32,000 nucleotides of DNA, taken from NCBI RefSeq assembly GCF_000010625.1, contig NC_010296.1, positions 4,980,001 through 5,012,000 of the forward strand, in the 5' to 3' direction. Position 1 is the stretch's first letter. The number at the start of each line of letters is the position of its first letter. Source of the stretch: Microcystis aeruginosa NIES-843. Lineage in GTDB: Bacteria > Cyanobacteriota > Cyanobacteriia > Cyanobacteriales > Microcystaceae. This document shows, in pieces, positions 1,990 to 16,906 of this stretch. Under the pieces are notes generated by a model. The model worked only from the letters and a program-made list of their open reading frames with translations. It had not been told where the DNA came from and made no database searches. The position numbers were made by a program, and so were the translations under genes.

Positions 1990-2892
1990 ATGACTCGCCA
2001 AATTCATGACCAATTTGCTAAGGAATATCTGGAGGAATTACTAACACCTCTAGGGACGATTAAAAAGAGTAAGAAAGTCAAAAGTGAGGTTCAAGAAATC
2101 GATGTCTGGTTTGAACCATTTAGCTCACCTCCTCCCACTGAGTTACCTTTAGGATTACTTGGAAAAATGGCGGCTACTTCCTGTTTGTTTGAACCTTTCC
2201 GCAATCCCCCGACCGAGGTAGAGATTCGCAGTTGTTTGTCAAAGTTATACACGGTTCATGGGGATGTCTTGAGAAAAGCGAAACGGTCAAACAAAACTCT
2301 GACGGTCGCAGAATTGCCTTTCTTATGGATTCTAACGCCCACCTTTTCAGCTAGAATGATTGAAGATTTCGGGACTCACAGCGATGAGAGTAATTGGTTA
2401 ACAGGGGTTTACTTTTTAGCGAAGTCTCTCAAAGCGGGCATCATTGTCATTCATCAATTACCAGTAAATGAAGACACCTTATGGTTGAGGGTATTAGGTA
2501 AAGGAGGGACACAGAAACGAGCAGTTGAAGAGTTAGTTGAACTGCCAGAACGCAATCCTTTTCGAGAGAATTTATTAGAAATTCTGGCCAACTGGCGCAA
2601 GAACTTAGAGTTGAGAGATAATTTAAGTACCGAAGAACAGGAGGACATCATGAACTTATCACCAGCTTATTTACAACAAAGGGAAGAGTGGAAGCAAGAA
2701 GGGATACAACAAGGTAGTTTAGAAGAACGGTATTCCCTGATAACCAGTCTTCTGGAAGGACGCTTTGGCCCCCTAGATTCGGAATTATTCAGTCTAGTAG
2801 AAAAGATGGCCCAACTTCCCATCTCGGAACGCACCGCTTTACTTCTTTCTTTAGCGAATTTATCCCGCGAGGAATTGTTGGAAAGATTGTAA
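1990..2892 (+). CDS. DUF4351-containing, Rpn/YhgA-like (PD-(D/E)XK nuclease family) protein
   Basis: 300 aa. The N-terminus (HDQFAKEYLEELL...SEVQEIDVWFEP) and C-terminal tail (LLEGRFGPLDSEL...LSREELLERL) match the abundant cyanobacterial DUF4351/Rpn-like family by eye. Confidence 0.6.
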   Translation: MTRQIHDQFAKEYLEELLTPLGTIKKSKKVKSEVQEIDVWFEPFSSPPPTELPLGLLGKMAATSCLFEPFRNPPTEVEIRSCLSKLYTVHGDVLRKAKRSNKTLTVAELPFLWILTPTFSARMIEDFGTHSDESNWLTGVYFLAKSLKAGIIVIHQLPVNEDTLWLRVLGKGGTQKRAVEELVELPERNPFRENLLEILANWRKNLELRDNLSTEEQEDIMNLSPAYLQQREEWKQEGIQQGSLEERYSLITSLLEGRFGPLDSELFSLVEKMAQLPISERTALLLSLANLSREELLERL

Positions 2893-2921
2893 ATTTCGTT
2901 TCTCGCTCTTCTTACAGTCGT

Positions 2922-3422
2922 TCAACGATAATTGTTTTCCTTTTGTTTTTGCCGATAAGCTTCAAATTCGGGGTTACTGGCAAGAATTTGACGAACGCGC
3001 TCGCGACTTATGCCGTATTTATCCCCTATTTGCTGATAGCTTAATCCTTGTCTATGGAGTTCTAAAAAATCGTAGCTTTTTTGCAGTTTTTCCTTTCTCT
3101 GTGCATCCCGTCTTGGGGTTGGACTCTTATCGCTAAGGTGTCCTACTATTTCCCTTCCCAACTCAGTCAAAGAATATTGAGAATCGTGGAAACTAACCAA
3201 TCCTTGTTTTTCCAATTCTTTAAGTATTTTATGTACTCTGGTTAAATTATGAGCAGTTGTTGCCAATTGCCGAGATGGTTCCGAAAGTATCCGAATTGCC
3301 GAATCGATCTCAATCGGATAATCTAACATCCCTTTCAGAATCTGTTTCTGTTTTGCTTGGAGATTAGCGATCATCTCCTCTAAATGTTGAAAGTCTTCAT
3401 TTTTATCCATCGGAATTATCAT
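2922..3422 (-). CDS. putative DNA-binding protein: MarR-like winged helix plus sigma-70 region-4-like HTH
   Basis: 166 aa. The central part (LTRVHKILKELEKQGLVSF...LTELGREIV) looks like a winged helix. The C-terminal LSYQQIGDKYGISRERVRQILA looks like a region-4 HTH. The gene is divergent from the oxidoreductase gene. Confidence 0.55.
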   Translation of the reverse strand: MIIPMDKNEDFQHLEEMIANLQAKQKQILKGMLDYPIEIDSAIRILSEPSRQLATTAHNLTRVHKILKELEKQGLVSFHDSQYSLTELGREIVGHLSDKSPTPRRDAQRKEKLQKSYDFLELHRQGLSYQQIGDKYGISRERVRQILASNPEFEAYRQKQKENNYR

Positions 3423-5844: not shown

Positions 5845-5919
5845 TTATCAACTCCTCTGATTTTCTTTTTTGGAAATAATGAAATAGGGTTAAGCAGGTA
5901 GGCGTTAAAAATTATCAGA

Positions 5920-6073
5920 CACCCCCCTTATCAAGGGGGGCAGGGGGGATCCCCCCGCCTATCGGCACCCCCCTTATCAAGGGGGGCAGGGGGGATCCCC
6001 CCGCCTATCGGCACCCCCCTTATTAAGGGAGGCAGGGGGGATCCCCCCGCCTATCGGCACCCCCCTTATTAAG
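5920..6073. repeat. 46-bp tandem repeat, 3 full units plus a 4th unit split by the IS (continues 7661-7690)
   Basis: Units start at 5920, 5966, 6012 and 6058. The consensus is CACCCCCCTTATCAAGGGGGGCAGGGGGGATCCCCCCGCCTATCGG, which contains C6/G6 hairpin arms and the palindrome GGGGGGATCCCCCC. Confidence 0.9.
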
Positions 6074-7660
6074 CTATCCATTAGTCGGATCTTTCTTAAC
6101 AAAAAGAGAAGAAACTTAAAAAAAGGGGAAACGATTGATAGGTATAGTTTTGAAAGAAGGAATTAAGGTGGAGGTAAGCAAAAAAATGGAGAAATGGGCA
6201 GCCCAAGAATTACAGTATGCAGACCTAGGGGACACCAGAAGAAAGAAAAGGTTAATCAGTATCGTAGAAAACTTGGCCAGCCAACCTAGTACAAGTGTGC
6301 CACAAGCCTCGGGAAATCTAGCCGCAGCGAGTGCCACCTACGACTTTTGGAATTCCCCCTATTTTCACCCGTCAGATATAATTGCCGCCCAAGCTAAAAG
6401 TACAGTAGAAAGAATCAAAGAACATCCAATAGTTTTGGCAGTGCAAGACACAACAAGTTTAGACTTTACGACCCAAAAAGCCAAAAAAGGAATGGGTTAT
6501 CTAGATTATAAAAAATCCTTTGGTCTCAAAGTTCATACCACATTAGGAGTGTCAGCGCAAGGAATACCTTTAGGACTGATTAATCAATATGTCTGGGCAA
6601 GAGAAGAAAAGAATTTAGGGATTGCCAAGCAACGCAAAAAAAGAGAAACCCAAGAAAAAGAAAGTCAAAGATGGTTAGATTCTTTGTCAGAAACACAACA
6701 ACAGATACCCGAAGATATTCAAGTAGTAACAATCGGAGATTGTGAGGCAGACATATTTGATTTATTTGCCCAATCAAGAAGTCCTAACTCTCATTTATTA
6801 ATTCGAGGAACTCATAACCGAAAAGTTAACTATCTCGAAGACAAGCAAAGGTCAGGGCATTCAGAGCCTAAATATTTACATCAATCCATCAGAGAAATAA
6901 AAGCCTGTGGGACCTTAGATGTGCAAGTAAAACGCAATCCTAATCACGAGGCTAGACTAGCTAAACTAACAGTTAGATTTGCCAGTTTTGAAATACAAGT
7001 ACCTAGCCATCACTCCAAGGCGACCCCTCGTCAACCGGTCAAATTACAGGTAATTTTAGCTGAAGAAGAAAATCCGCATAGCGGAGTTAATCCTATCAGT
7101 TGGCTGCTCTTAACTAGCCTAGACATTAGTAGCTTTGAATCAGCGATAACCTGTGTGCGCTGGTATAGTTATCGCTGGTTAATAGAACGCTATCATTTTG
7201 TTTTAAAAAGTGGTTGTGGATTAGAAAAACTGCAATTAGAAACGGGTCGTAGAATTGAGATGGCCTTAGCTACCTATTCAATTGTAGCTTGGAGATTACT
7301 TTGGTTAACCTATCAAGCACGCTTACACGGAGAGGAGAGTTGTGAAAGTTTTTTGGAAGAACATGAATGGCAATCTTTGTGTGCCACTATTCATAAAAAG
7401 AGTCCGCCACCTGAAAAGCCGCCCTCCTTTCGAGAAGCGGTCAGAATGATTGCTTCTCTTGGGGGGTTTTTAGGTAGAAAAGGTGACGGTGAACCAGGTG
7501 TTAAAACTATTTGGTTGGGACTGCGAAGGTTACATGATATCAGCCAGACTTGGAAACTATCTCATCAAATTAGTCCCCCCATAGAACCCCCTTGAGCCAT
7601 CTTGCACACTTTTCTCTTTTTGTCAAATTTTATGTTAAGAAAGATGTGACTAATGGATAG
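6074..7660 (+). mobile_element. IS4-family (IS50/Tn5-like) insertion sequence, 1587 bp, apparently intact
   Basis: The terminal inverted repeats are CTATCCATTAGTCGGATCTTTCTTAACA (left) and CTATCCATTAGTCACATCTTTCTTAACA (reverse complement of the right end). A 9-bp direct duplication CTTATTAAG lies at 6065-6073 and 7661-7669. Confidence 0.9.
6186..7595 (+). CDS. IS4-family DDE transposase (Tn5 Tnp-like)
   Basis: The N-terminus (LGDTRRKKRLISIVENLA...LAVQDTTSLDF) parallels Tn5 Tnp. DDE candidates are QDTTS and GDCEADIF. The Y-x2-R-x3-E-x6-K motif is YSYRWLIERYHFVLK. The track ORF starts at TTG 6135, but ATG 6186 follows AAGGTGGAGG. Confidence 0.9.
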   Translation: MEKWAAQELQYADLGDTRRKKRLISIVENLASQPSTSVPQASGNLAAASATYDFWNSPYFHPSDIIAAQAKSTVERIKEHPIVLAVQDTTSLDFTTQKAKKGMGYLDYKKSFGLKVHTTLGVSAQGIPLGLINQYVWAREEKNLGIAKQRKKRETQEKESQRWLDSLSETQQQIPEDIQVVTIGDCEADIFDLFAQSRSPNSHLLIRGTHNRKVNYLEDKQRSGHSEPKYLHQSIREIKACGTLDVQVKRNPNHEARLAKLTVRFASFEIQVPSHHSKATPRQPVKLQVILAEEENPHSGVNPISWLLLTSLDISSFESAITCVRWYSYRWLIERYHFVLKSGCGLEKLQLETGRRIEMALATYSIVAWRLLWLTYQARLHGEESCESFLEEHEWQSLCATIHKKSPPPEKPPSFREAVRMIASLGGFLGRKGDGEPGVKTIWLGLRRLHDISQTWKLSHQISPPIEPP

Positions 7661-7950
7661 CTTATTAAGGGGGGCAGGGGGGATCGAACCTAAAATCCAT
7701 TTTTAATTTAATTAGAACTCTTGCAAATTAATTATATGTTATAATGATGGGTTAACTAATTTTCCCCAAAAAATTAGTTAATCAGTACATTCGTCCTGAA
7801 TGAAAACTTGAAGTTTAACTTTTAACTCAAAACTCTTTAGAGCTGCTTTAATTTGGTTATCAAAACCTCTTTATTTAAGCGGCACAAACTATCTCAATTT
7901 TTATAATTGAGAATAAATTCTCCTTGACTTGATTAATCTTTAGGCAACTT

Positions 7951-8129
7951 TTAAGAAGCTGCTATACCTATCCCTAACTCACAGTTATAAATAGCCGCCA
8001 ACAAGTTAACTCTTAAACTATATCTTCGACGACGATTCCGATATTTACAGGATAAGATTTTAAAGATTTTGAGTTTCCTATTTATAGGTTCAATGATAAT
8101 CCTTTCTTTAGCTAAAGCCTTGTTATACT
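7951..8129 (-). pseudogene. C-terminal fragment of the outer-copy transposase
   Basis: This is the reverse complement of the 3' end of the inner-copy gene (..YNKALAKERIIIE.INRKLKIFKIL...GIGIAAS*), with a few SNPs. Confidence 0.8.
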
Positions 8130-8270
8130 AGACCTCTTGCATAATTTTTTTATGGTATAATATAAGGTTTTGCTTTTTTCTCAATTCTTAGATTGAAGTG
8201 GAAAAAAGAATAAAATGTGATCTTAGGTCAGGAAATCATCTATAATTTTGCTATGTTTATTAGCAAAATT

Positions 8271-9199
8271 ATGGATTATCAAAACTTATCAGATGAACAA
8301 TTCAAACGCCGTTTCGGTGTGTATAAACAAACATATAGAAAGATGGTAGAATCAGTAAAAAGTGTTGAAGCCGACTCTAATTCACCATCTAAAAGGGGAC
8401 CGAAACCTAAACTATCTATAGAAGAACAAGTTTTAGTAACGTTAGAATATTGGCGAGAATATAGAACATATTTTCACATTGGTACAAGCTGGGAACTATC
8501 AGAATCAACTATATGTCGGATTGTAAATAAGACGGAAAAAATGCTTTTACAATCGGGAAACTTCCGTTTAAAAGGAAAAAAAGCTTTACTCAATCAAGCA
8601 GAGATACCGGTCATAACGGTAATGGATGTAACGGAAACTCCCATTGAACGCCCCCAAAAGAAACAGAAAGATTTTTTGGGGGGTAAAAGAGGTTATCATA
8701 CTTTAAAATCCCAATTAGTAGCTGATCAAAATACAGAGGAAATTATCTGTGTCTTCTGTGGGAAAGGTAGAGGTCATGATTTTAGTTTATTTAAAAAAAG
8801 TCGAGTTCGTTTTCATCCTTTAACTACCAGCATAGAAGACAGTGGTTATCAGGGAATAAGCTTAGACGCACTTACATTGCACTTTAATATCCTGGAACGC
8901 CTTGTAGATAGGGATACGAGTAGGAAACTTAAATGCGTCTAAGCTTAGCTGCATACCATAGTAATAGTTATACACCGAAAAAGAAATCGAAAAATAGAAA
9001 ATTAACAGAGTTAGAAAAAGAGTATAACAAGGCTTTAGCCAAAGAAAGGATTATCATTGAACATATAAATAGGAAACTCAAAATCTTTAAAATCTTATCC
9101 TGTAAATATCGGAATCGTCGTCGAAGATATAGTTTAAGAGTTAACTTGTTGGCGGCTATTTATAACTGTGAGTTAGGGATAGGTATAGCAGCTTCTTAA
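8271..9199 (+). pseudogene. DDE_Tnp_4-type transposase of the inner copy, disrupted by a MITE
   Basis: Track ORFs 8217..8942 and 8933..9199 are one gene. The outer copy reads ..SGYQGIAAYHSNSYTPKKK.. without interruption, whereas here 89 bp intervene after GI. DDE candidates are VMDVTE, SIEDSGYQG and IIIEHINRKLK. Confidence 0.8.
8859..8945. mobile_element. 87-bp MITE inside the inner transposase gene
   Basis: The terminal inverted repeats are AGCTTAGACGCA ... TGCGTCTAAGCT, flanked by TA at 8857-8858 and 8946-8947. The element is absent from the otherwise collinear outer copy. Confidence 0.75.
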
Positions 9200-9436
9200 A
9201 AGTTGCCTAAAGATTAATCAAGTCAAGGAGAATTTATTCTCAATTTTTATAATTGAGATAGTTTGTGCCGCTTAAATAAAGAGGTTTTGATAACCAAATT
9301 AAAGCAGCTCTAAAGAGTTTTGAGTTAAAAGTTAAACTTCAAGTTTTCATTCAGGACAAATGTACTGATTAACTAATTTTTTGGGGAAAATTAGTTAACC
9401 CATCATTATAACATATAATTAATTTGCAAGAGTTCT

Positions 9437-10100
9437 ACTCTTTTTCTAACTCTGTTAATTTTCTATTTTTCGATTTCTTTTTCGGTGTATAACTATTACT
9501 ATGGTATGCAGCTATTCCCTGATAACCACTGTCTTCTATGCTGGTAGTTAAAGGATGAAAACGAACTCGACTTTTTTTAAATAAACTAAAATCATGACCT
9601 CTACCTTTCCCACAGAAGACACAGATAATTTCCTCTGTATTTTGATCAGCTACTAATTGGGATTTTAAAGTATGATAACCTCTTTTACCCGAAAAAAAAT
9701 CTTTCTGTTTCTTTTGGGGGCGTTCAATGGGAGTTTCCGTTACATCCATTACCGTTATGACCGGTATCTCTGCTTGATTGAGTAAAGCTTTTTTTCCTTT
9801 TAAACGGAAGTTTCCCGATTGTAAAAGCATTTTTTCCGTCTTATTTACAATCCGACATATAGTTGATTCTGATAGTTCCCAGCTTGTACCAATGTGAAAA
9901 TATGTTCTATATTCTCGCCAATATTCTAACGTTACTAAAACTTGTTCTTCTATAGATAGTTTAGGTTTCGGTCCCCTTTTAGATGGTGAATTAGAGTCGG
10001 CTTCAACACTTTTTACTGATTCTACCATCTTTCTATATGTTTGTTTGTACACACCGAAACGGCGTTTGAATTGTTCATCTGATAAGTTTTGATAATCCAT
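9437..10100 (-). pseudogene. N-terminal fragment of the outer-copy transposase
   Basis: The sequence MDYQNLSDEQFKRRFG... through ...KLTELEKE is cut at the inner-copy insertion. The track ORF is 9435..10154. Confidence 0.8.
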
Positions 10101-10356
10101 AATTTTGCTAATAAACATAGCAAAATTATAGATGATTTCCTGACCTAAGATCACATTTTATTCTTTTTTCCACTTCAATCTAAGAATTGAGAAAAAAGCA
10201 AAACCTTATATTATACCATAAAAAAATTATGCAAGAGGTCTATTATAACCAGCTACTTAAGCAAGCCAACCAACGAATTGAGCAGAATGAAAAAGCTATA
10301 GTCGCTTTGATCGCATTTCTGTTATCTTCTTCTTACCCTCATTAAAATAAGTAGCC

Positions 10357-10782
10357 ATGGGTAAGTTTTTACTAACCGTATTAAGCATAGCAAGTTTGTT
10401 TGCTGTCGGGATGGCTACCCCTAGCATTGCCAGTCCCACATCTGCAGCGACAAACTTGCAACTAGCTCAACGTCCTAACTGTAACAATCCCCAGACTCAA
10501 AGCCAAATGAACATTTGCGCCAGCATCGCTTATCAAAACGCCGATCGCAAGTTAAATCAAGTTTATCGACAACTACTGCCAAAACTGTCAGCTGCTCGCA
10601 AACAAAAATTAATTACCGCCCAACAAGCTTGGATTAAGTTTAGAGACAGCAGTTGCGAATTTGAAAGAAGCGCCTATGAGGGAGGCTCTATAGCTCCCAT
10701 GATTTACGGTAATTGTTTGGCAGCTGTCACCGAGCAGCGTACCAAAGATTTGCGGAGATATTTAGAAGATAGCGATCTCTAA
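10357..10782 (+). CDS. secreted DUF1311/LprI-family (lysozyme-inhibitor-like) protein
   Basis: 141 aa with a signal peptide. The pattern C..PQTQSQMNIC...ADRKLNQVY...QQAWIKFRDSSC...GGS...C...R matches DUF1311. Confidence 0.8.
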   Translation: MGKFLLTVLSIASLFAVGMATPSIASPTSAATNLQLAQRPNCNNPQTQSQMNICASIAYQNADRKLNQVYRQLLPKLSAARKQKLITAQQAWIKFRDSSCEFERSAYEGGSIAPMIYGNCLAAVTEQRTKDLRRYLEDSDL

Positions 10783-10841
10783 GTCAGAATCGCCGTTGAT
10801 ATTACCGATAATTCCTTAGACGTTTACTGCACAACAGCCTA

Positions 10842-10912
10842 AGCGGGTGAGGGGAATCGAACCCCTATCATTAGCTTGGAAGGCTAGGGTTTTACCACTA
10901 AACTACACCCGC
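10842..10912 (-). tRNA. tRNA-Gly (anticodon UCC)
   Basis: The cloverleaf was read by eye on the minus strand. Acceptor stem is GCGGGTG/CACCCGC, D arm GTTT-AGTGGTA-AAAC, anticodon loop CTTCCAA, and T arm AGGGG-TTCGATT-CCCCT. CCA is not encoded. Confidence 0.9.
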
Positions 10913-10997
10913 ATTTTCTTAGCACTTTCGTTAGTATAACACGAATTGCCGATTTTTGCAAGTAGGGATTTTCAGCTTGTGAATCGCCCCTAGATGG

Positions 10998-11735
10998 TCA
11001 TAGATTGCCTAAAAATCCCGATCGCTCGGTTATTTCCCCGATTTGGCTAAAAGTTTTCTCCACGCGATCGAGGTCTAGTTGGGAGAAATTATCGATCGCC
11101 CAGTTGGACACTCTCTGCATAAAATGGAAGGGATAGGTATGAGCGATTCCCACCACCTGCATTCCCGCTCTTTTTGCCGCTTCGCAACCGGCAAAAGTAT
11201 CTTCAATCACCAGACATTCCCAGGGTTGCAACTGTAGATTAAAATTCCAACGATTGAATCTTTCTACGGCCAGTAAATAACCATCCGGTTGAGGTTTACT
11301 GGTGCTAATCTCATCACCGGTGACAATGACACTAAAGTAATCCCCAAGGCCCGTCTGTTGCAAGATCGATTCTACTTCCGAGCGTATTGCTCCCGTCACC
11401 AAACCGATTTGTAGATCCCTGGCCTTAACCCGTTTTAAAAAAGAGTATATCTCTTCATAAATAGGAAGTTTCTCTAATTTTCCTAATCTTTCTCGGTATA
11501 AACTCGCTTTTTTGTTAATTAACTTGGTCAGATACTCCTCGGTTACTTGACGACCGCGACGGGTGAGAACATTACGCAAACAGACGCGATCGCTTCTTCC
11601 CAGACATAACTCCGCAAATTCCGACCCTAGGTGCAGTAAATTTTCTCCGAGCAAGATTTCATTGATTAACTCTTGATGGATCGGTTCATCATTGATGATC
11701 ACCCCATTAAAATCGAACAGAACAGCCTTTAACAT
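10998..11735 (-). CDS. HAD-superfamily hydrolase (beta-phosphoglucomutase/CbbY-like subfamily IA)
   Basis: Motif I is the variant VLFDFNGVI. Also present are GLVTGA, a K, and a late EDTFAGCEAAKRAGM motif. ATG 11735 is preferred over the track's TTG 11738. Confidence 0.8.
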   Translation of the reverse strand: MLKAVLFDFNGVIINDEPIHQELINEILLGENLLHLGSEFAELCLGRSDRVCLRNVLTRRGRQVTEEYLTKLINKKASLYRERLGKLEKLPIYEEIYSFLKRVKARDLQIGLVTGAIRSEVESILQQTGLGDYFSVIVTGDEISTSKPQPDGYLLAVERFNRWNFNLQLQPWECLVIEDTFAGCEAAKRAGMQVVGIAHTYPFHFMQRVSNWAIDNFSQLDLDRVEKTFSQIGEITERSGFLGNL

Positions 11736-11847
11736 CAATCTTAGACAGAAAAGCTAATAAATACTCACTGTTCTTGATTATACTAAAGTTTTTCGTTGGG
11801 GCCAGGTGTGGGTAAGCTAAGACCCATTTTCCCCCAATCCCCAACTC

Positions 11848-11942
11848 CCCACCCCCCCGACATCGGGGGGGTCGGGGGGGTGGGTAGGGTTGATTCATGA
11901 ATCAACCCTACCTTGAATCAACCCTACTATGAATCAACCCTA
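11848..11942. repeat. G/C-run hairpin plus palindrome block (TAGGGTTGATTCA|TGAATCAACCCTA with extra GAATCAACCCTA half-sites)
   Basis: CCCACCCCCCCGA (11848-11860) pairs perfectly with TCGGGGGGGTGGG (11872-11884). A 26-bp perfect palindrome at 11885-11910 is followed by two more half-sites. A related block lies at 13828-13869. Confidence 0.85.
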
Positions 11943-12001
11943 GGGGCAGGGGGGGGGAGATTCGGCTAATCTAAGAATAAGCGGTTTAAATGCGTCTTAG
12001 C

Positions 12002-13681
12002 TTACAAGCTAGAAGAACAGCAAGTTTTCCATTTTTGGGCGATAGAAAGGATTAATGCTTTTTCTGCTAGGGGTAAATTGGCAGCCTGTCGGTCGATTAT
12101 ATCCCTTAATTCCCCGATAATCCGATCTCTAGTCCCTCGGGAGTCACTTCTCTGGACTAAAGCCATTTCTGTGATAACTCGATTTAAACTGCTGATAGCT
12201 TGCCAAGTTTGCGGACGTAATGACGGTTCTGCGGCAATGGGGGCAACTTTCAGGGAAGCGATACTATCGAGAGTTGCAGCCTGACTAAATCGGTGTAAAG
12301 TTTGGGCGAGGCTATACATTTCTTCCCCGTAGGCGAGGGAACGTACCACAGCAAAGGCTTTTTCGGCTTTTTCGGTGTCCCGTTGGCGAAGATCCCAAAA
12401 ACCAGCGGCGGCGGCGCGAGCAGGAGTGTCTAGACGGATTTGGCTGTCACGAAGAGAAAACGGTTTCGCCGACGCATATTTTAACAATTGCCAATCGGAG
12501 GGATTTTCTGCCAGACGGGAGACGCGATAGATAATTTCTGCCTCTGGGAATTGCGGTAAAACGCGATTAACGGCGGCAAGGACAGGAATAAACTGGCGGC
12601 TGTACCGAAGGTATTGATTGAGGTTATTAATAGCTGTTTCCCAGTCTTGCTGTAACCATTGTTGTAGAGTCGAGGTTAACCCCGGCAGCGGTAGAAGGGT
12701 AATACGGGGAAAAAGTCGCCCTTGGGGGCCTGCCAAAAGCCCGATTAGCCAATTATCAAGACGGAAAAAGGCGAATATAAACACCACGCCCAACACCCCG
12801 CCCGACACCCCGCCCCACACCACGCCCGACACCACGCCCAACACCACGCCCCGCACCCCGCCCGACATCACGCCCAACACCACGCCCCACATCACGCCCG
12901 ACATCACGCCCCACATCACGCCCGACATCACGCCCGACATCACGCCCGACATCACGCCCCACACCCCGCCCCACACACCGCTCCACACACCGCCCAACAC
13001 CACGATCAACACCCCGCCCAACACCACGCCCGACATCACGCCCAACACCCCGCCCGACACCACGCCCCACACACCGCCCCACACACCGCCCAACACCACG
13101 ATCAACACCACGATCAACACCCCGCCCAACACCACGCCCGACATCACGCCCAACACCCCGCCCCACACCACGCCCCACACACCGCCCCACACACCGCCCG
13201 ACACCACGATCAACACCCCGCCCAACACCACGCCCCACACCCCGCCCAACACCCCGCCCGACATCACGCCCAACACCACGCCCAACACCACGCCCAACAC
13301 CACGCCCAACGCCACGCCCAACGCCACGCCCGACACCACGCCCAACGCCACGCCCGACACCACGCCCAACGCCACGCCCCACACCACGCCCGACGCCACG
13401 CCCGACAGCACGCCCACCCAATTAACAGAAAGTCCTAAATTTGCTGCTATGCTACAGATAATCAGAGGGGTAATTACAGTTAAGAGAAGACCCTGAATCC
13501 TTAGACGCAATTGTACGGGATGGTTATCGCCGCCGCCTCTCGTTTCCACATACCAGCGCACTGCTTGGGGAAAATAAAACACCCAGTACAACAGCAAAAG
13601 ATAATCAAAAGGATTCCATAAAGATAAATTGCGTCTGAGTTTAGGGGCGAGATTAATGGTGGGGACGGTGCTTTCCTTCAT
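12002..13681 (-). CDS. membrane protein with a ~215-residue minisatellite-encoded GxxxG (glycine-zipper-like) array; family unknown
   Basis: A single 559-codon ORF runs from ATG 13681 to TAA 12002. It has a non-repetitive hydrophobic N-terminus, ~54 tetrapeptide units (GVVL/GVMS/GGVW/IVVL...), and a ~250-aa non-repetitive C-terminal domain that stays in frame. Confidence 0.7.
   Translation of the reverse strand: MKESTVPTINLAPKLRRNLSLWNPFDYLLLLYWVFYFPQAVRWYVETRGGGDNHPVQLRLRIQGLLLTVITPLIICSIAANLGLSVNWVGVLSGVASGVVWGVALGVVSGVALGVVSGVALGVALGVVLGVVLGVVLGVMSGGVLGGVWGVVLGGVLIVVSGGVWGGVWGVVWGGVLGVMSGVVLGGVLIVVLIVVLGGVWGGVWGVVSGGVLGVMSGVVLGGVLIVVLGGVWSGVWGGVWGVMSGVMSGVMSGVMWGVMSGVMWGVVLGVMSGGVRGVVLGVVSGVVWGGVSGGVLGVVFIFAFFRLDNWLIGLLAGPQGRLFPRITLLPLPGLTSTLQQWLQQDWETAINNLNQYLRYSRQFIPVLAAVNRVLPQFPEAEIIYRVSRLAENPSDWQLLKYASAKPFSLRDSQIRLDTPARAAAAGFWDLRQRDTEKAEKAFAVVRSLAYGEEMYSLAQTLHRFSQAATLDSIASLKVAPIAAEPSLRPQTWQAISSLNRVITEMALVQRSDSRGTRDRIIGELRDIIDRQAANLPLAEKALILSIAQKWKTCCSSSL
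12781..13426 (-). repeat. 12-nt periodic minisatellite, about 54 units (plus strand NACAYCMCGCCC)
   Basis: The periodicity is direct and strict. All six frames are open across it, which explains the overlapping track ORFs 12618..13496(+) and 12756..13421(-). Confidence 0.95.
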
Positions 13682-13745: not shown

Positions 13746-13821
13746 CACCCCCCTTATCAAGGGGGGATTAAGGGGGGATCAAACCCCCCTTATCAAGGGG
13801 GGCAGGGGGGATCAAACCCCC
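13746..13821. repeat. second locus of the G6/C6 palindromic repeat family
   Basis: CACCCCCCTTATCAAGGGGGG..GGGGGGATC occurs twice. The leader TTAAGTAGGTAGGTGTTAA (13720s) matches TTAAGCAGGTAGGCGTTAA at 5890-5908. Confidence 0.85.
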
Positions 13822-13827
13822 TCAAGG

Positions 13828-13869
13828 TAGGGTTGATTCATGAATCAACCCTACTATGAATCAACCCTA
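13828..13869. repeat. palindrome block, same orientation as 11885-11942
   Basis: TAGGGTTGATTCATGAATCAACCCTA plus CTATGAATCAACCCTA. It lacks one 16-bp half-site unit that is present in the left block. Confidence 0.85.
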
Positions 13870-13932
13870 GGGGGCAAGGGGATCAAAGACAAAATCTATC
13901 TTCTATTTAATCAGAACCACTTAATTATCGGA

Positions 13933-14078
13933 ACTAAAAAAGGCTTATATATATTTAGGCACGGATTCCCATTATAATAAAAAGTATAGGTCAAATCGAG
14001 GGATTTTGTCAAGTCTTTTTTAGCATTAATCTATATAATTGTCGGGTTGCTTACCAGTCATTGTCCTGAAAAAAATTA
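13933..14078 (+). repeat. direct repeat copy 1 (~146 bp)
   Basis: About 94% identical by eye to 14942-15086 (8 mismatches and 1 indel). Confidence 0.9.
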
Positions 14079-14220
14079 GGTTCTTCTATTTGTGTTATCC
14101 AATGGAGGGGGTTATAAGGAATGAAACCCCGATAGAGACAGACATTACTGCGATTTTTGTCAATTGTTTTCGCTCTAGAACGAACTAATCAATTAAGTCT
14201 CTTGCCAGATCAGGATTTAG

Positions 14221-14472
14221 TCAATTTATGCCCCTATATCGAACCATACCAAGTAACGAAGAACCTTCTTTTTCCTCTTCTTGAATCGCCGATTTCGGGA
14301 CAATGACGACGTTAACCGATTCTTCTACTTCGTTGAATAGTTCTAAAACATATCCTTCCTCACCCCCCTTCGGATGGGCAACTATATCGACAAGAATCGC
14401 CGAATCACCCTGCTTAAGATTGTATTCGGGAACGTCGCGGGCTAGGGTCACTTCTTCGTATAGTTGCGCCAT
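14221..14472 (-). CDS. DUF4926 domain protein (antitoxin-like partner)
   Basis: 83 aa. LYEEVTLARDVPEYNLKQGDSAILVDIV...GYVLELFN...VVIVPKSAI matches the DUF4926 pattern. It starts 3 nt after the DUF6883 stop. Confidence 0.75.
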   Translation of the reverse strand: MAQLYEEVTLARDVPEYNLKQGDSAILVDIVAHPKGGEEGYVLELFNEVEESVNVVIVPKSAIQEEEKEGSSLLGMVRYRGIN

Positions 14473-14475
14473 GGT

Positions 14476-14805
14476 TTATTTTTCCTTTCGAGGTTTGAGG
14501 GTGATAAATTGAAATTGATGATCTAGATTTCGTTTTAGCCAAATCGTGACAACGGATAGGGGAACTTGATTACTGCTGATTAATTCCCCCTCGACTCGAT
14601 AGAAGGTTCCGTATTCGTTGGTAAGATCTTCGATGGCGGGATTGGTTTGAATTAGTTGGATGAGGGCGGTTTTTAGTGCATCGGGATTAGCGAGGGTAAA
14701 GCCAGCGCGGGCGAGGTATTTTGATTTGTCATCTTTGGGGCGAAATTTGAGGAGATATTTAGTTATTTTATCATCGGGAATTAGGGAGTCGCTAGGCAGG
14801 TACAT
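14476..14805 (-). CDS. DUF6883 domain protein
   Basis: 109 aa. IPDDKITKYLL...KSKYLARAGFTLANPDALKTAL...YGTFYRVEGEL...VVTIWL matches the DUF6883 pattern. This family commonly pairs with DUF4926. Confidence 0.7.
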   Translation of the reverse strand: MYLPSDSLIPDDKITKYLLKFRPKDDKSKYLARAGFTLANPDALKTALIQLIQTNPAIEDLTNEYGTFYRVEGELISSNQVPLSVVTIWLKRNLDHQFQFITLKPRKEK

Positions 14806-15355: not shown

Positions 15356-16906
15356 GTGAACCCTGTGCAAATATTCACAACAATCCCCGGTTTACGCACT
15401 TTTTTGGCTGATTATCGCCATGATCATAGTATTGCCCTCGTGCCAACCATGGGCGCTCTCCATAAAGGTCATGCTAGTCTAATTCGACGCGCAGTGACGG
15501 AAGCGGAGGTAACTGTGGTCAGTATTTTTGTTAATCCTCTACAATTTGCCCCCACAGAGGATTTTTCTCGCTATCCCCGCAGCCTTGACAGCGATCGCCA
15601 ACTGTGTGAATCTTTGGGAGTTGCTGCTATTTTTGCTCCCAGTGCGGAAACTTTAGGAATTGGTAATTCTGAGGAGATAACCGCAGTTGTTCCCCCGATT
15701 TCTCTGACTAGCGGGTTATGTGGTGCTTTTCGTCCGGGACATTTTCAGGGAGTAGCCACAATTGTCACGCGGTTGTTTAATATTATTGCACCGACGATCG
15801 CCTATTTTGGCGAAAAGGATGCTCAACAGTTAGCGATTATCCGGCAATTAGTCAGGGATTTAAATTTAGCGATCGAGATTCGCGCTTGTGCTACAGTGCG
15901 AGAAACATCGGGATTAGCAGTTAGTTCTCGCAATCAGTATCTATCGGCCACAGAAAAGGAAAAAGCGACAATTATCGCCCAAAGTTTGCAATTAGCCCTC
16001 GAAAGTTTTCGTTTAGGGGAAAGACAAAGGGAAAAACTACTGGCTATTGTCCAAAAAAATCTGGACAGAGTACCAGAATTTCGCCCTCAGTATCTGGATT
16101 TAGTCCATCCCCAGAGTTTACAACCGATCGAGCAGATCGAGACAGGGGGCTTATTAGCGATCGCCGGATCGATCGGTCAAACCCGTTTAATTGATAATAT
16201 TATCTTGCGTCAACGTCGGGCAGTTATCGCTATTGATGGGCCTGCTGGAGCGGGAAAATCGACGGTAACGCGCTTAGTAGCGGAAAAATTGGGGTTAACC
16301 TATCTCGATACCGGTGCGATGTATCGCGCGGTGACATGGTTAGTGGTGAATTCCGGTCTGGATTTGTCCGCAGAAGCGGCCATCGCCGAGTTATTATCTT
16401 TAGCGAAGATAGCAATAATTCCGGCCGATAGTCCCGAAAATGTGACTATAGTGAAGATTAACGGGCAAGATGTGACTTTAGAGATTCGCTCTCCCGCAAT
16501 TACCTCGCAAGTGTCCAGAATTGCCGCTCAAAAAGCGGTGCGACAGCAGTTAGTCACCCTGCAAAGACAGCTGGGAATGTCGGGGGGAATAGTTGTGGAA
16601 GGTCGGGATATTGGTACTAATGTTTTTCCAGAAGCGGAATTAAAGATTTTCTTGACAGCGACACCCGAAGAAAGAGCGAGAAGGAGATTAAAAGACTTAG
16701 AAGCGCAGGGAAATGGAGGTATTAGTCTCGCAGAATTAACCCAAGAGATTGAAAAAAGGGATTATTTGGATAGTAATCGCTCCCTAGCACCCCTGCGAAA
16801 AGCCGCAGATGCGATCGAAGTTAATACCGATCATCTCAGTATTACAGAAGTCACGGAAAAAATCATTGCTCTTTATCATCTTAACTCAGGTAATTTAGGG
16901 AGATAA
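15356..16906 (+). CDS. panC: bifunctional pantoate--beta-alanine ligase / cytidylate kinase
   Basis: PanC motifs are VPTMGALHKGHASL and FGEKDAQQ. The Cmk half has the P-loop IAIDGPAGAGKSTV and LDTGAMYRA. The GTG at 15365 (8 nt after AAGGAG) may be the true start. Confidence 0.9.
   Translation: MNPVQIFTTIPGLRTFLADYRHDHSIALVPTMGALHKGHASLIRRAVTEAEVTVVSIFVNPLQFAPTEDFSRYPRSLDSDRQLCESLGVAAIFAPSAETLGIGNSEEITAVVPPISLTSGLCGAFRPGHFQGVATIVTRLFNIIAPTIAYFGEKDAQQLAIIRQLVRDLNLAIEIRACATVRETSGLAVSSRNQYLSATEKEKATIIAQSLQLALESFRLGERQREKLLAIVQKNLDRVPEFRPQYLDLVHPQSLQPIEQIETGGLLAIAGSIGQTRLIDNIILRQRRAVIAIDGPAGAGKSTVTRLVAEKLGLTYLDTGAMYRAVTWLVVNSGLDLSAEAAIAELLSLAKIAIIPADSPENVTIVKINGQDVTLEIRSPAITSQVSRIAAQKAVRQQLVTLQRQLGMSGGIVVEGRDIGTNVFPEAELKIFLTATPEERARRRLKDLEAQGNGGISLAELTQEIEKRDYLDSNRSLAPLRKAADAIEVNTDHLSITEVTEKIIALYHLNSGNLGR

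Follow-up and report, generated by a model that had tools for sequence, protein, structure and literature searches.

Is the open reading frame (ORF) of 559 amino acids (aa) on the minus strand at positions 12002-13681 of a 32,000-nucleotide (nt) stretch of Microcystis aeruginosa NIES-843 (contig NC_010296.1, positions 4,980,001 to 5,012,000; hereafter the window) a membrane protein in its own right, or a piece of something larger? The ORF is dominated by an array of GxxxG tetrapeptides encoded by a 12-nt minisatellite, and a first-pass annotation, made from the sequence alone, had proposed that it encodes a stand-alone, length-variable membrane-active effector of an undescribed type. The related loci argue against a stand-alone protein, as the relatives run on into an ATPase_2/AAA_16 domain and a winged helix. 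We consider the ORF to be, with a probability of about 75%, a derived and orphaned allele of the third gene of a cyanobacterial conflict system built on nucleoside triphosphatases (NTPases).

Relatives of the repeat ORF are membrane-anchored ATPases

A scan of species-representative cyanobacterial genomes (one per species) yielded at least 168 loci that encode a relative of the ORF, of which the best 80 were retained; the enclosing ORF was recovered by script in 67 of these. Among the genera represented in the best 80 loci are Nostoc, Fischerella, Tolypothrix, Scytonema, Microcoleus, Oscillatoria, Coleofasciculus, Symploca, Rivularia and Pannus, and Microcystis is represented by eight genomes. 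In 64 of the 67 recovered ORFs the reading frame is continuous and contains a Walker A motif some 300 aa past the motif of the middle domain, the only exceptions being three truncated Microcystis alleles. From stop to stop the 64 long ORFs measure roughly 670-1055 aa, where the shortest are cut at contig ends, and the full-length gene encodes 782-1055 aa in Microcystis and typically ~850-950 aa elsewhere.

Full-length proteins matched the Pfam families ATPase_2 (4e-10) and AAA_16 (2e-10), together with AAA_22 and AAA_35, and showed a weak winged-helix match at the C-terminus. From the N-terminus on, the parts are a conserved module, a hydrophobic region rich in GxxxG, the helical middle domain (~250-300 aa), the P-loop ATPase (Walker sequence GHRRMGKTS in the intact family) and a winged helix. 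The N-terminal module has the consensus LAPKLxRxLSLWNPxDYLxLLYWVFYFPQA.RWY, followed by a charged loop and one transmembrane-like helix, and its core (LAPKLxRxLSLWNPxDYLxLLYWVFYFPQA) occupies aa 10-40 of the window ORF and recurs in every full-length relative examined. A profile search against 1.84 billion cluster representatives (50% identity) gave 1189 matches with E<=1e-3; the stricter cut-offs of 1e-10 and 1e-30 left 622 and 267, and lengths of 850-1000 aa are frequent among the matches. Members of the family carry the NCBI product name 'ATP-binding protein', and neither Pfam nor NCBIfam has a model for the N-terminal module, the GxxxG minisatellite or the helical middle domain. Text searches returned no earlier description of a GxxxG-array NTPase in cyanobacteria, which is not proof of absence.

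The window ORF by itself had no family match in the Pfam, NCBIfam and PADLOC scans, apart from a FliH match at E=0.14 that we dismissed as meaningless. Its kinship with the ATPases is carried by the C-terminal part: the last 259 aa are ~90% identical to many Microcystis sequences and 35-54% identical to those of other cyanobacteria, and the middle domain found its homologues outside Microcystis with E-values of 1e-63 to 1e-34. Several of the middle-domain homologues bear the name 'ATP-binding protein, partial', and PF13191 is found in one. The family motifs WLxQDWE, RLDTPARAAAAGFW and YGEEM are all present in the middle domain of the window ORF, which has lost the conserved LALN of the near-invariant family motif ALNRAxGEL. 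An AlphaFold model of residues 296-559, built on an alignment of 31 sequences, consists of twelve helices (mean predicted local distance difference test (pLDDT) 85.8, predicted template modelling score 0.81). Foldseek searches with this model gave nothing significant in PDB (best E=0.25, template modelling score 0.33) or BFVD (best E=0.27), the PDB matches being generic helical-repeat proteins only (Sec17, CSN1 and TPR proteins), and a sequence search of PDB reached no better than E 0.28 for the middle domain and 0.27 for the ATPase half of an intact Microcystis protein (that of locus L006, see below). The middle domain is thus predicted, on the strength of the model, to be a real folded domain without a known relative in sequence or fold. 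The first-pass annotation had described it as a helical C-terminal domain of ~250 aa that could not be placed in any family; it remains without a relative in Pfam, PDB and BFVD, but it is the middle domain of a longer protein and not a C-terminal one.

Two further records touch the middle domain. A RelA/SpoT-like protein (P0055, PF04607 and PF02824, on an NCBI contig of 3189 nt) shares 89% identity with the middle domain over the ~45 residues into which its C-terminus runs (AETAFAVVRSLAYGEEMYSLAQTLHRFSQAATLDS...); this looks like another stray fragment of the ATPase gene, present in some Microcystis. In Microseira wollei NIES-4236 (P0064, labelled 'DUF4013 domain-containing' in UniRef) a relative has an in-frame deletion that joins a five-unit array to a point midway through the helical domain, and the ATPase gene has thus decayed independently there.

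Two deletions separate the window from an intact locus

The complete chromosome of Microcystis ichthyoblabe FBCC-A1114 (locus L006) served as intact reference. The window is colinear with it over 10257-11806 and 12029-13100, with an HAD hydrolase gene downstream and a DUF6883/DUF4926 pair and panC-cmk upstream, but two blocks of L006 are missing and short scars stand in their place (Table 1). Homology to L006 ends at window position 12029, after the codons for QKW, and restarts near 11813, and a tblastn search with the L006 protein against the 32-kb window found nothing more of the ATPase or winged helix. The downstream scar contains three copies of GGGTTGATTCA..., a palindrome at 11887-11908 and poly-C/poly-G hairpins. 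This palindrome, GGGTTGATTCATGAATCAACCC, occurs exactly twice in the 32 kb (11887-11908 and 13830-13851), where none is expected by chance. The same palindromic element thus lies in both scars, one copy on each side of the ORF, which explains the 'repeat-bracketed patch' that had been noticed on first inspection.

The truncation junction is common to the window and two further Microcystis loci, L001 and L002. In L002 and L003 a one-base insertion turns the tail into KTCLFF, and in L003 the 5' end of the gene has been replaced as well. Upstream of the ORF, both the window and L002 have neither Trypco1 nor the trypsin-nSTAND1 gene. No outgroup with an ATPase-less ancestral form was found; since the ATPase is present in all other genera, we take the short form to be derived. 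The comparison of these sequences indicates that the window ORF represents the front two-thirds or so of the gene for an ATPase of ~860 aa (aa 1-551, followed by 8 foreign codons), and that two deletions removed both partner genes and the ATPase-winged-helix half.

Table 1. Features of the repeat ORF and its immediate surroundings (positions in the window)
Feature	Position	Strand	Remarks
Whole ORF, 559 aa, ATG start	12002..13681	-	Putative allele of the membrane-anchored ATPase gene, truncated at its 3' end
Conserved N-terminal module, aa 1-89	13415..13681	-	
GxxxG array, aa 90-300; 53 units of the coding minisatellite GGC GTG GTG TNG (12 nt)	12782..13414	-	
All-helical middle ('linker') domain, aa 301-551	12029..12781	-	Between array and ATPase in full-length relatives
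Foreign 8-codon tail KTCCSSSL and stop	12002..12028	-	Homology to intact alleles stops right after ...IAQKW
Promoter-like TTGACA-18-TATACT, 11/12 matches, directed at the ORF	13983..14012	-	Inside the upstream scar; consensus match only
Downstream deletion scar, ~190 bp, repeat-rich	11814..12001		Replaces ~1.5 kb of ATPase and winged-helix DNA (L006 6766-8281)
Upstream deletion scar, ~300 bp	13786..14084		Replaces ~1.8 kb of Trypco1 and trypsin-nSTAND1 DNA (L006 3461-5263)

The GxxxG array of the window ORF

The anatomy of the ORF agrees with the first description, which had recognized three parts joined in frame. They are a hydrophobic module (aa 1-89), the repeat (aa 90-300) and the helical domain of ~250 aa. 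Basic at its start (LAPKLRRNLSLWNP), the module goes on with an aromatic hydrophobic helix at aa 24-48 and, at aa 55-81, a transmembrane-like one; it lacks a charged loop of 16 aa (KLTEQKTWRD..FLRD) that intact alleles have. For the repeat, Tandem Repeats Finder reported a period of 12 with 53.1 copies over 12780-13416 (84% matches, no indels, score 721). Read unit by unit, aa 90-300 consist of 52 full tetrapeptides and a final GVV, hence 53 units and 211 residues, close to the ~54 units and ~215 residues estimated before. Among the 52 units the first position is G in 47, I in 4 and S in 1, the second V in 35 and G in 17, the third V in 36, M in 10, A in 5 and L in 1, and the fourth L in 22, S in 16, W in 13 and R in 1. 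Other properties that had been read from the letters were likewise recovered. The variation lies in single nucleotides at fixed codon positions (fourth codon TTG/TCG/TGG/CGG, third GTG/ATG/GCG, second GTG/GGG/GGT), a higher-order duplication is visible in units 22-29 and 31-38, which share the order GGVL GVMS GVVL GGVL IVVL .. GGVW.GVW, and R277, in the GGVR unit, is the sole charged residue among the 211.

The fourth possible T-N-G codon, TAG, is absent from codon 4 in all units, which fits a translated frame. Two more long ORFs overlap the array (12618-13496 on the plus and 12756-13421 on the minus strand); they are by-products, because the 12-nt unit is stop-free in every frame. Of the frames across the array, only GVxx connects the conserved parts at the N- and C-terminus; this holds for all 67 related loci with a recovered ORF, each of which is open through the array.

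By sequence the array is a transmembrane glycine zipper, with GxxxGxxxG in a hydrophobic segment. An hmmscan of the whole ORF against Pfam-A (E<=1) gave no match to the glycine-zipper families Gly-zipper_Omp, Gly-zipper_YMGG and Rick_17kDa_Anti. In an AlphaFold model of the full ORF, helices run along the array with a pLDDT of only 32-58, and the topology is not readable from the model. Two other kinds of element were considered and set aside. Amyloid-signalling motifs, known from bacterial NLR-like proteins, show a polar N/Q pattern, which the array lacks; diversity-generating retroelements mutate adenines, of which the array has almost none.

A length-variable coding minisatellite in many cyanobacterial genera

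The array is not peculiar to the window. In 47 loci from outside Microcystis the region before the middle domain typically measures 85-150 aa, with G at period 4, and in most genera it is encoded by a 12-nt tandem repeat of ~20-40 copies (65-95% matches) with the unit GGC GTG GCG NNN, as compared to GGC GTG GTG NNN in Microcystis. In these 47 loci (L009-L079) the arrays have a GC content of 67%, against 44% in the rest of the same genes and 42.5% in the loci as a whole. The codons GGC, GTG and GCG make up 64, 76 and 69% of the glycine, valine and alanine codons in the arrays and 16, 26 and 13% elsewhere in the same genes. The 12-nt unit is therefore conserved as DNA, including its synonymous sites, across cyanobacterial orders; continual re-amplification, gene conversion and a role at the level of DNA or RNA are candidate causes of the codon bias.

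Within Microcystis we found copy numbers of 6.9, 8.7, 24.9, 26.5, 30.7, 33.9, 48, 53 and 73.8, and intact alleles cover the same range as truncated ones. The proposal that the array changes length by whole 12-nt units without breaking the frame is well supported by this spread of 7-74 units, and the repeat number is not invariant: L005 and L006 are 18 units apart while their flanks differ by a synonymous divergence (dS) of only ~0.03-0.04. Period, copy-number difference among close relatives and preserved frame are those of a coding minisatellite. The chromosome-level and otherwise intact allele L007 shows a one-residue register shift in units 17-25 (GLVS SCVG FGVS LGVD ...), so that 3-nt insertions occur besides those of 12 nt.

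The regular array is not a property of the whole family. Among 71 full-length cluster representatives, 14 have at least 10 consecutive glycines at period 4 and 31 have fewer than 5, from which it follows that regularity is not required throughout. We interpret the membrane region of the family as polytopic and rich in glycine, and the regular array as a form into which one large sub-clade has elaborated it. The new finding concerns the repeat, which in this family is maintained in many genera as a coding minisatellite of variable length.

Minisatellites may collapse or expand during assembly, and the length or unit order of the window array could have arisen in this way. Many metagenome-derived Microcystis alleles indeed have very short arrays (4-16 units) that may be collapsed assemblies, and an exact-sequence look-up in a public collection found no entry identical to the 559-aa protein. 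Nevertheless, the divergence between the units is sufficient to anchor an assembly, and arrays of 25-35 units are present in records deposited as complete or at chromosome level (L006, L007 and FACHB-1757 (P0061)). The homologous array of L001 (48 units) moreover has the same 3' end and the same rare units (IVVL, GGVW, GVMS and GGVR) as that of the window, from which it differs by internal gaps of whole units, and the reading frame is preserved. We give an assembly artefact only a slim chance.

Intact relatives are paired with nSTAND1 proteins

In five Microcystis loci (L004-L008) and in Pannus (L009) the ATPase gene is the third of a row, preceded by a gene for Trypco1/Pepco and by one for a protein with Trypsin_2 and nSTAND1 domains. 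In L006 the Trypco1 protein has 101 aa (PF19493 6.6e-17; NF041216 69 bits, cut-off 23) and the partner NTPase 431 aa. Outside Microcystis, 48 of about 60 loci have a co-directional upstream gene for an nSTAND1 protein of ~350 aa (PF20703, up to 1.6e-11) at a median gap of 182 bp. The N-terminal domain of this partner is swapped between lineages: most Nostocales have a helical domain without assignment, Heteroscytonema has CHAT, and Microcystis and Pannus share trypsin. The partner nSTAND1 and the membrane ATPase resemble each other only around the P-loop, and neither of the two has the usual C-terminal repeat sensor. As a separate observation, the ~120-aa N-terminal domain of most nSTAND1 partners (L009-L080), which had no Pfam or NCBIfam match, looks like an adaptor of the helix-turn-helix type (for example MDSQEALAFINKL...LFLGIWEG.TY..IA....YSEQYLRE.G..L..KI...LGIKV.K.NFKN).

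The distribution of the family is patchy among cyanobacteria, with an enrichment in filamentous and colonial ones, and the whole system is missing from some Microcystis strains.

Conflict system or housekeeping gene, remnant or working protein

Several observations weigh against a decayed conflict-system gene, two of them at the level of the family. In the Nostocaceae the gene pair is flanked by genes for oligopeptide transport and does not lie in a defence island, and PADLOC gave weak P-loop matches but no significant match to a system. The others concern the window copy. All 35 of the family-invariant columns of the middle domain are retained in it; truncated alleles are common, with an open frame in many independent Microcystis sequences; a strong promoter-like site (a consensus match only) precedes the truncated ORF; and the ratio of non-synonymous to synonymous divergence (dN/dS) in the middle domain, 0.36-1.16 between truncated as against 0.26-0.89 between intact alleles, differs in the expected direction but weakly and noisily, with pairs that are not independent. 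In addition, the genomic context of the bracketed cassette varies: the HAD hydrolase gene is its neighbour in the window and L003, whereas L001 and L002 carry it in other surroundings, with an amidotransferase-like gene downstream in both and threonine synthase upstream in L002. Either the cassette moved or rearrangements broke at the repeats.

The stable position between transport genes in the Nostocaceae and the PADLOC result would suit a housekeeping membrane ATPase, for instance one of envelope or thylakoid biogenesis, that has no role in conflict and that was dispensable in the window strain. The patchy distribution and the loss of the entire system in some Microcystis strains do not suit it, nor does the tight coupling to nSTAND1 proteins with swapped N-terminal domains and to Trypco1/Pepco, which is a signature of conflict systems (PMC7159879, PMC8195603), and we regard a housekeeping role as very unlikely.

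The effector idea of the first-pass annotation can be kept in a modified form, in which the ATPase-less gene was retained or moved as a repeat-bracketed cassette and works as a stand-alone membrane protein, which could act as a membrane-active toxin, serve as a decoy or inhibit intact systems. The open frames, the 35 retained residues, the promoter-like site and the second context of the cassette, bounded there by the same repeats, are compatible with such a retained or new role, as are the identical junction in many distinct truncated alleles and the absence of TAG from the variable codon across the 53 units. The truncation is recent, however (dS between truncated alleles 0.02-0.06), so that open frames and retained residues are to be expected even without selection. 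Furthermore, dN/dS is near 1 in several pairs of truncated alleles, conserved segments were deleted in frame, the tail is frameshifted between alleles (CCSSSL versus CLFF) and L003 is disrupted further. With so young a truncation none of this is decisive: the lost 16-aa loop, the lost LALN, the replaced 5' end of L003 and the dN/dS values may be read as signs of decay but do not settle the matter. Taken together, we consider a working stand-alone protein quite unlikely. The likeliest reading of the window copy is a remnant in decay, perhaps still expressed as a membrane protein but of doubtful present function.

A proposed role for the membrane ATPase

The sequence of intact proteins suggests how the membrane part could be arranged. 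The N-terminus is basic and a K/R-rich loop follows the first hydrophobic helix, and the ATPase must be cytoplasmic; together these features would imply that the chain crosses the membrane an odd number of times beyond the helix at aa 55-81. The intact protein would reside in the inner membrane, both middle domain and ATPase facing the cytoplasm, and could pair with the sensor-less nSTAND1 protein; ATP-dependent co-assembly of the two at the membrane might then license the protease to activate the Pepco pore. In systems without a protease, the glycine-zipper array itself might disturb the membrane. The window copy cannot run this circuit, because ATPase, partner NTPase, protease and Pepco are all gone.

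For the family as a whole the array may have a more direct part, as the killing element: oligomerisation driven by the ATPase would pack the zipper helices into a pore or otherwise disrupt the inner membrane, by analogy to the N-terminal effector domains of STAND proteins. The array does stand N-terminal of the NTPase, the usual place of an effector, most loci outside Microcystis and Pannus lack a protease or Pepco partner, so that another effector would be needed, and glycine zippers underlie the toxicity of TelE (PMC10434224) and of CdzC/CdzD (PMC5380434). Where Pepco and trypsin occur, on the other hand, an effector is already present, and in the intact Microcystis system Pepco/Trypco1 is a pore former with better documentation, so that the array need not be the killing part there. 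The 31 of 71 full-length representatives with fewer than 5 periodic glycines and the low confidence of the modelled array also speak against a killing array, and intact Microcystis alleles presumably work with anything from 7 to 74 units, which is hard to square with a defined pore geometry. We therefore hold a killing array to be rather less likely than not; the array may instead act as a sensor or an anchor.

A further proposal combines these elements. The array would be deliberately unstable, its nucleotide unit preserved across cyanobacterial orders so that recombination could go on re-sizing the membrane sensor or pore of an undescribed paired-NTPase immune system of nSTAND1 and membrane ATPase, and the window cassette would be a mobile and still active derivative of it, a membrane toxin or a dominant-negative regulator. 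We think this combination unlikely.

Other features of the neighbourhood

The first-pass annotation had placed the ORF next to a cassette resembling a toxin-antitoxin pair. These genes, DUF4926 (83 aa) and DUF6883 (109 aa) at 14221-14805 on the minus strand, have their counterpart in L006 at 2740-3324 and sit beside intact alleles too; they turn out to be an unlinked neighbour. Further upstream, 15356-16906 on the plus strand encodes a fused pantoate-beta-alanine ligase/cytidylate kinase (PF02569 and PF02224), which is also present in L006 and is an ordinary anchor of synteny. On the other side, ~4.4 kb at 5897-10256 have no counterpart in L006 and represent an insertion rich in insertion sequences close to the decayed operon, with a Tn5-type transposase at 6135-7595 and opposed partial ORFs for DDE_Tnp_4 at 8217-8942 (+) and 9435-10154 (-).

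Significance and comparison with known systems

The annotation of the locus can be corrected: the repeat ORF appears to be the truncated remnant of a larger gene and not a new stand-alone effector. The locus itself is ordinary, probably a decayed defence operon, and the unusual and testable feature belongs to the parent family. That family represents a widespread cyanobacterial module without a domain model (267 cluster representatives at E<=1e-30). It connects the nSTAND1/Pepco-protease immune circuitry with a membrane protein, and it may correspond to a class of 'transmembrane STAND ATPase' that has been mentioned in passing. It also offers a rare case of a transmembrane-type segment made from a minisatellite, with the DNA unit conserved across genera and a copy number that varies ten-fold in one genus, which raises the question how a polytopic membrane region tolerates or exploits the gain and loss of four-residue units.

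The nSTAND1 and Trypco1 domains were defined in surveys of conflict systems (Kaur et al. 2020, PMC7159879; Kaur et al. 2021, PMC8195603), in which text searches brought up no description of the membrane module, the GxxxG minisatellite or the middle domain. The intact relatives have the composition of the STAND/ORC-Cdc6-like conflict systems of multicellular bacteria, among which are nSTAND1 systems and pairs of NTPase genes: an N-terminal module, a P-loop NTPase, a winged helix and the pairing with nSTAND1. They differ from these systems in that neither NTPase of the family has a C-terminal repeat sensor, and the window copy, with the nSTAND1 partner and the ATPase deleted, has no NTPase at all and falls outside the class.

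Pepco (Trypco1/2) is a beta-barrel pore former that is activated by cleavage of its C-terminus by a neighbouring protease, and 'transmembrane STAND ATPases' are listed among the sensors associated with Pepco-protease modules (Evans et al. 2025, bioRxiv 10.1101/2025.11.14.688446). In Microcystis and Pannus the intact operons likewise have Trypco1 as their first gene; the second encodes a trypsin-like protease in fusion with a STAND-type NTPase, so that Trypco1 lies beside a protease in L004-L009, although not in the window. Unlike in those modules, the transmembrane ATPase is a separate third gene and not fused to the protease, and most members of the family have neither Pepco nor protease. We also weighed and rejected EACC1, which has one conserved transmembrane helix and a glycine patch but is a small caspase-paired protein of different architecture.

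Repeated GxxxG with almost exclusively hydrophobic spacers is shared with the glycine-zipper proteins CdzC/CdzD of Caulobacter (PMC5380434), with the type VII secretion effector TelE (PMC10434224) and with VacA, an example of a transmembrane glycine zipper (Kim et al. 2005, cited in those two papers). On this likeness the array would be expected to favour helix-helix packing, oligomerisation or aggregation in the membrane. Known glycine zippers measure ~12-25 residues (24-25 in CdzC/CdzD; PMC5380434). The array described here differs from them in its 211 residues and 53 units, in being encoded by a minisatellite and in belonging to an intracellular NTPase rather than to a secreted toxin.

In-frame coding minisatellites give rise to length-variable repeat proteins, such as the repeats of bacterial surface proteins. 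The array resembles these in its period, which is a multiple of three, in a copy number that varies between near-identical flanks and in the homogenisation of units within a genome; it is set apart from them by forming a transmembrane-type segment instead of an exposed surface domain and by a nucleotide unit that is common to several cyanobacterial orders.

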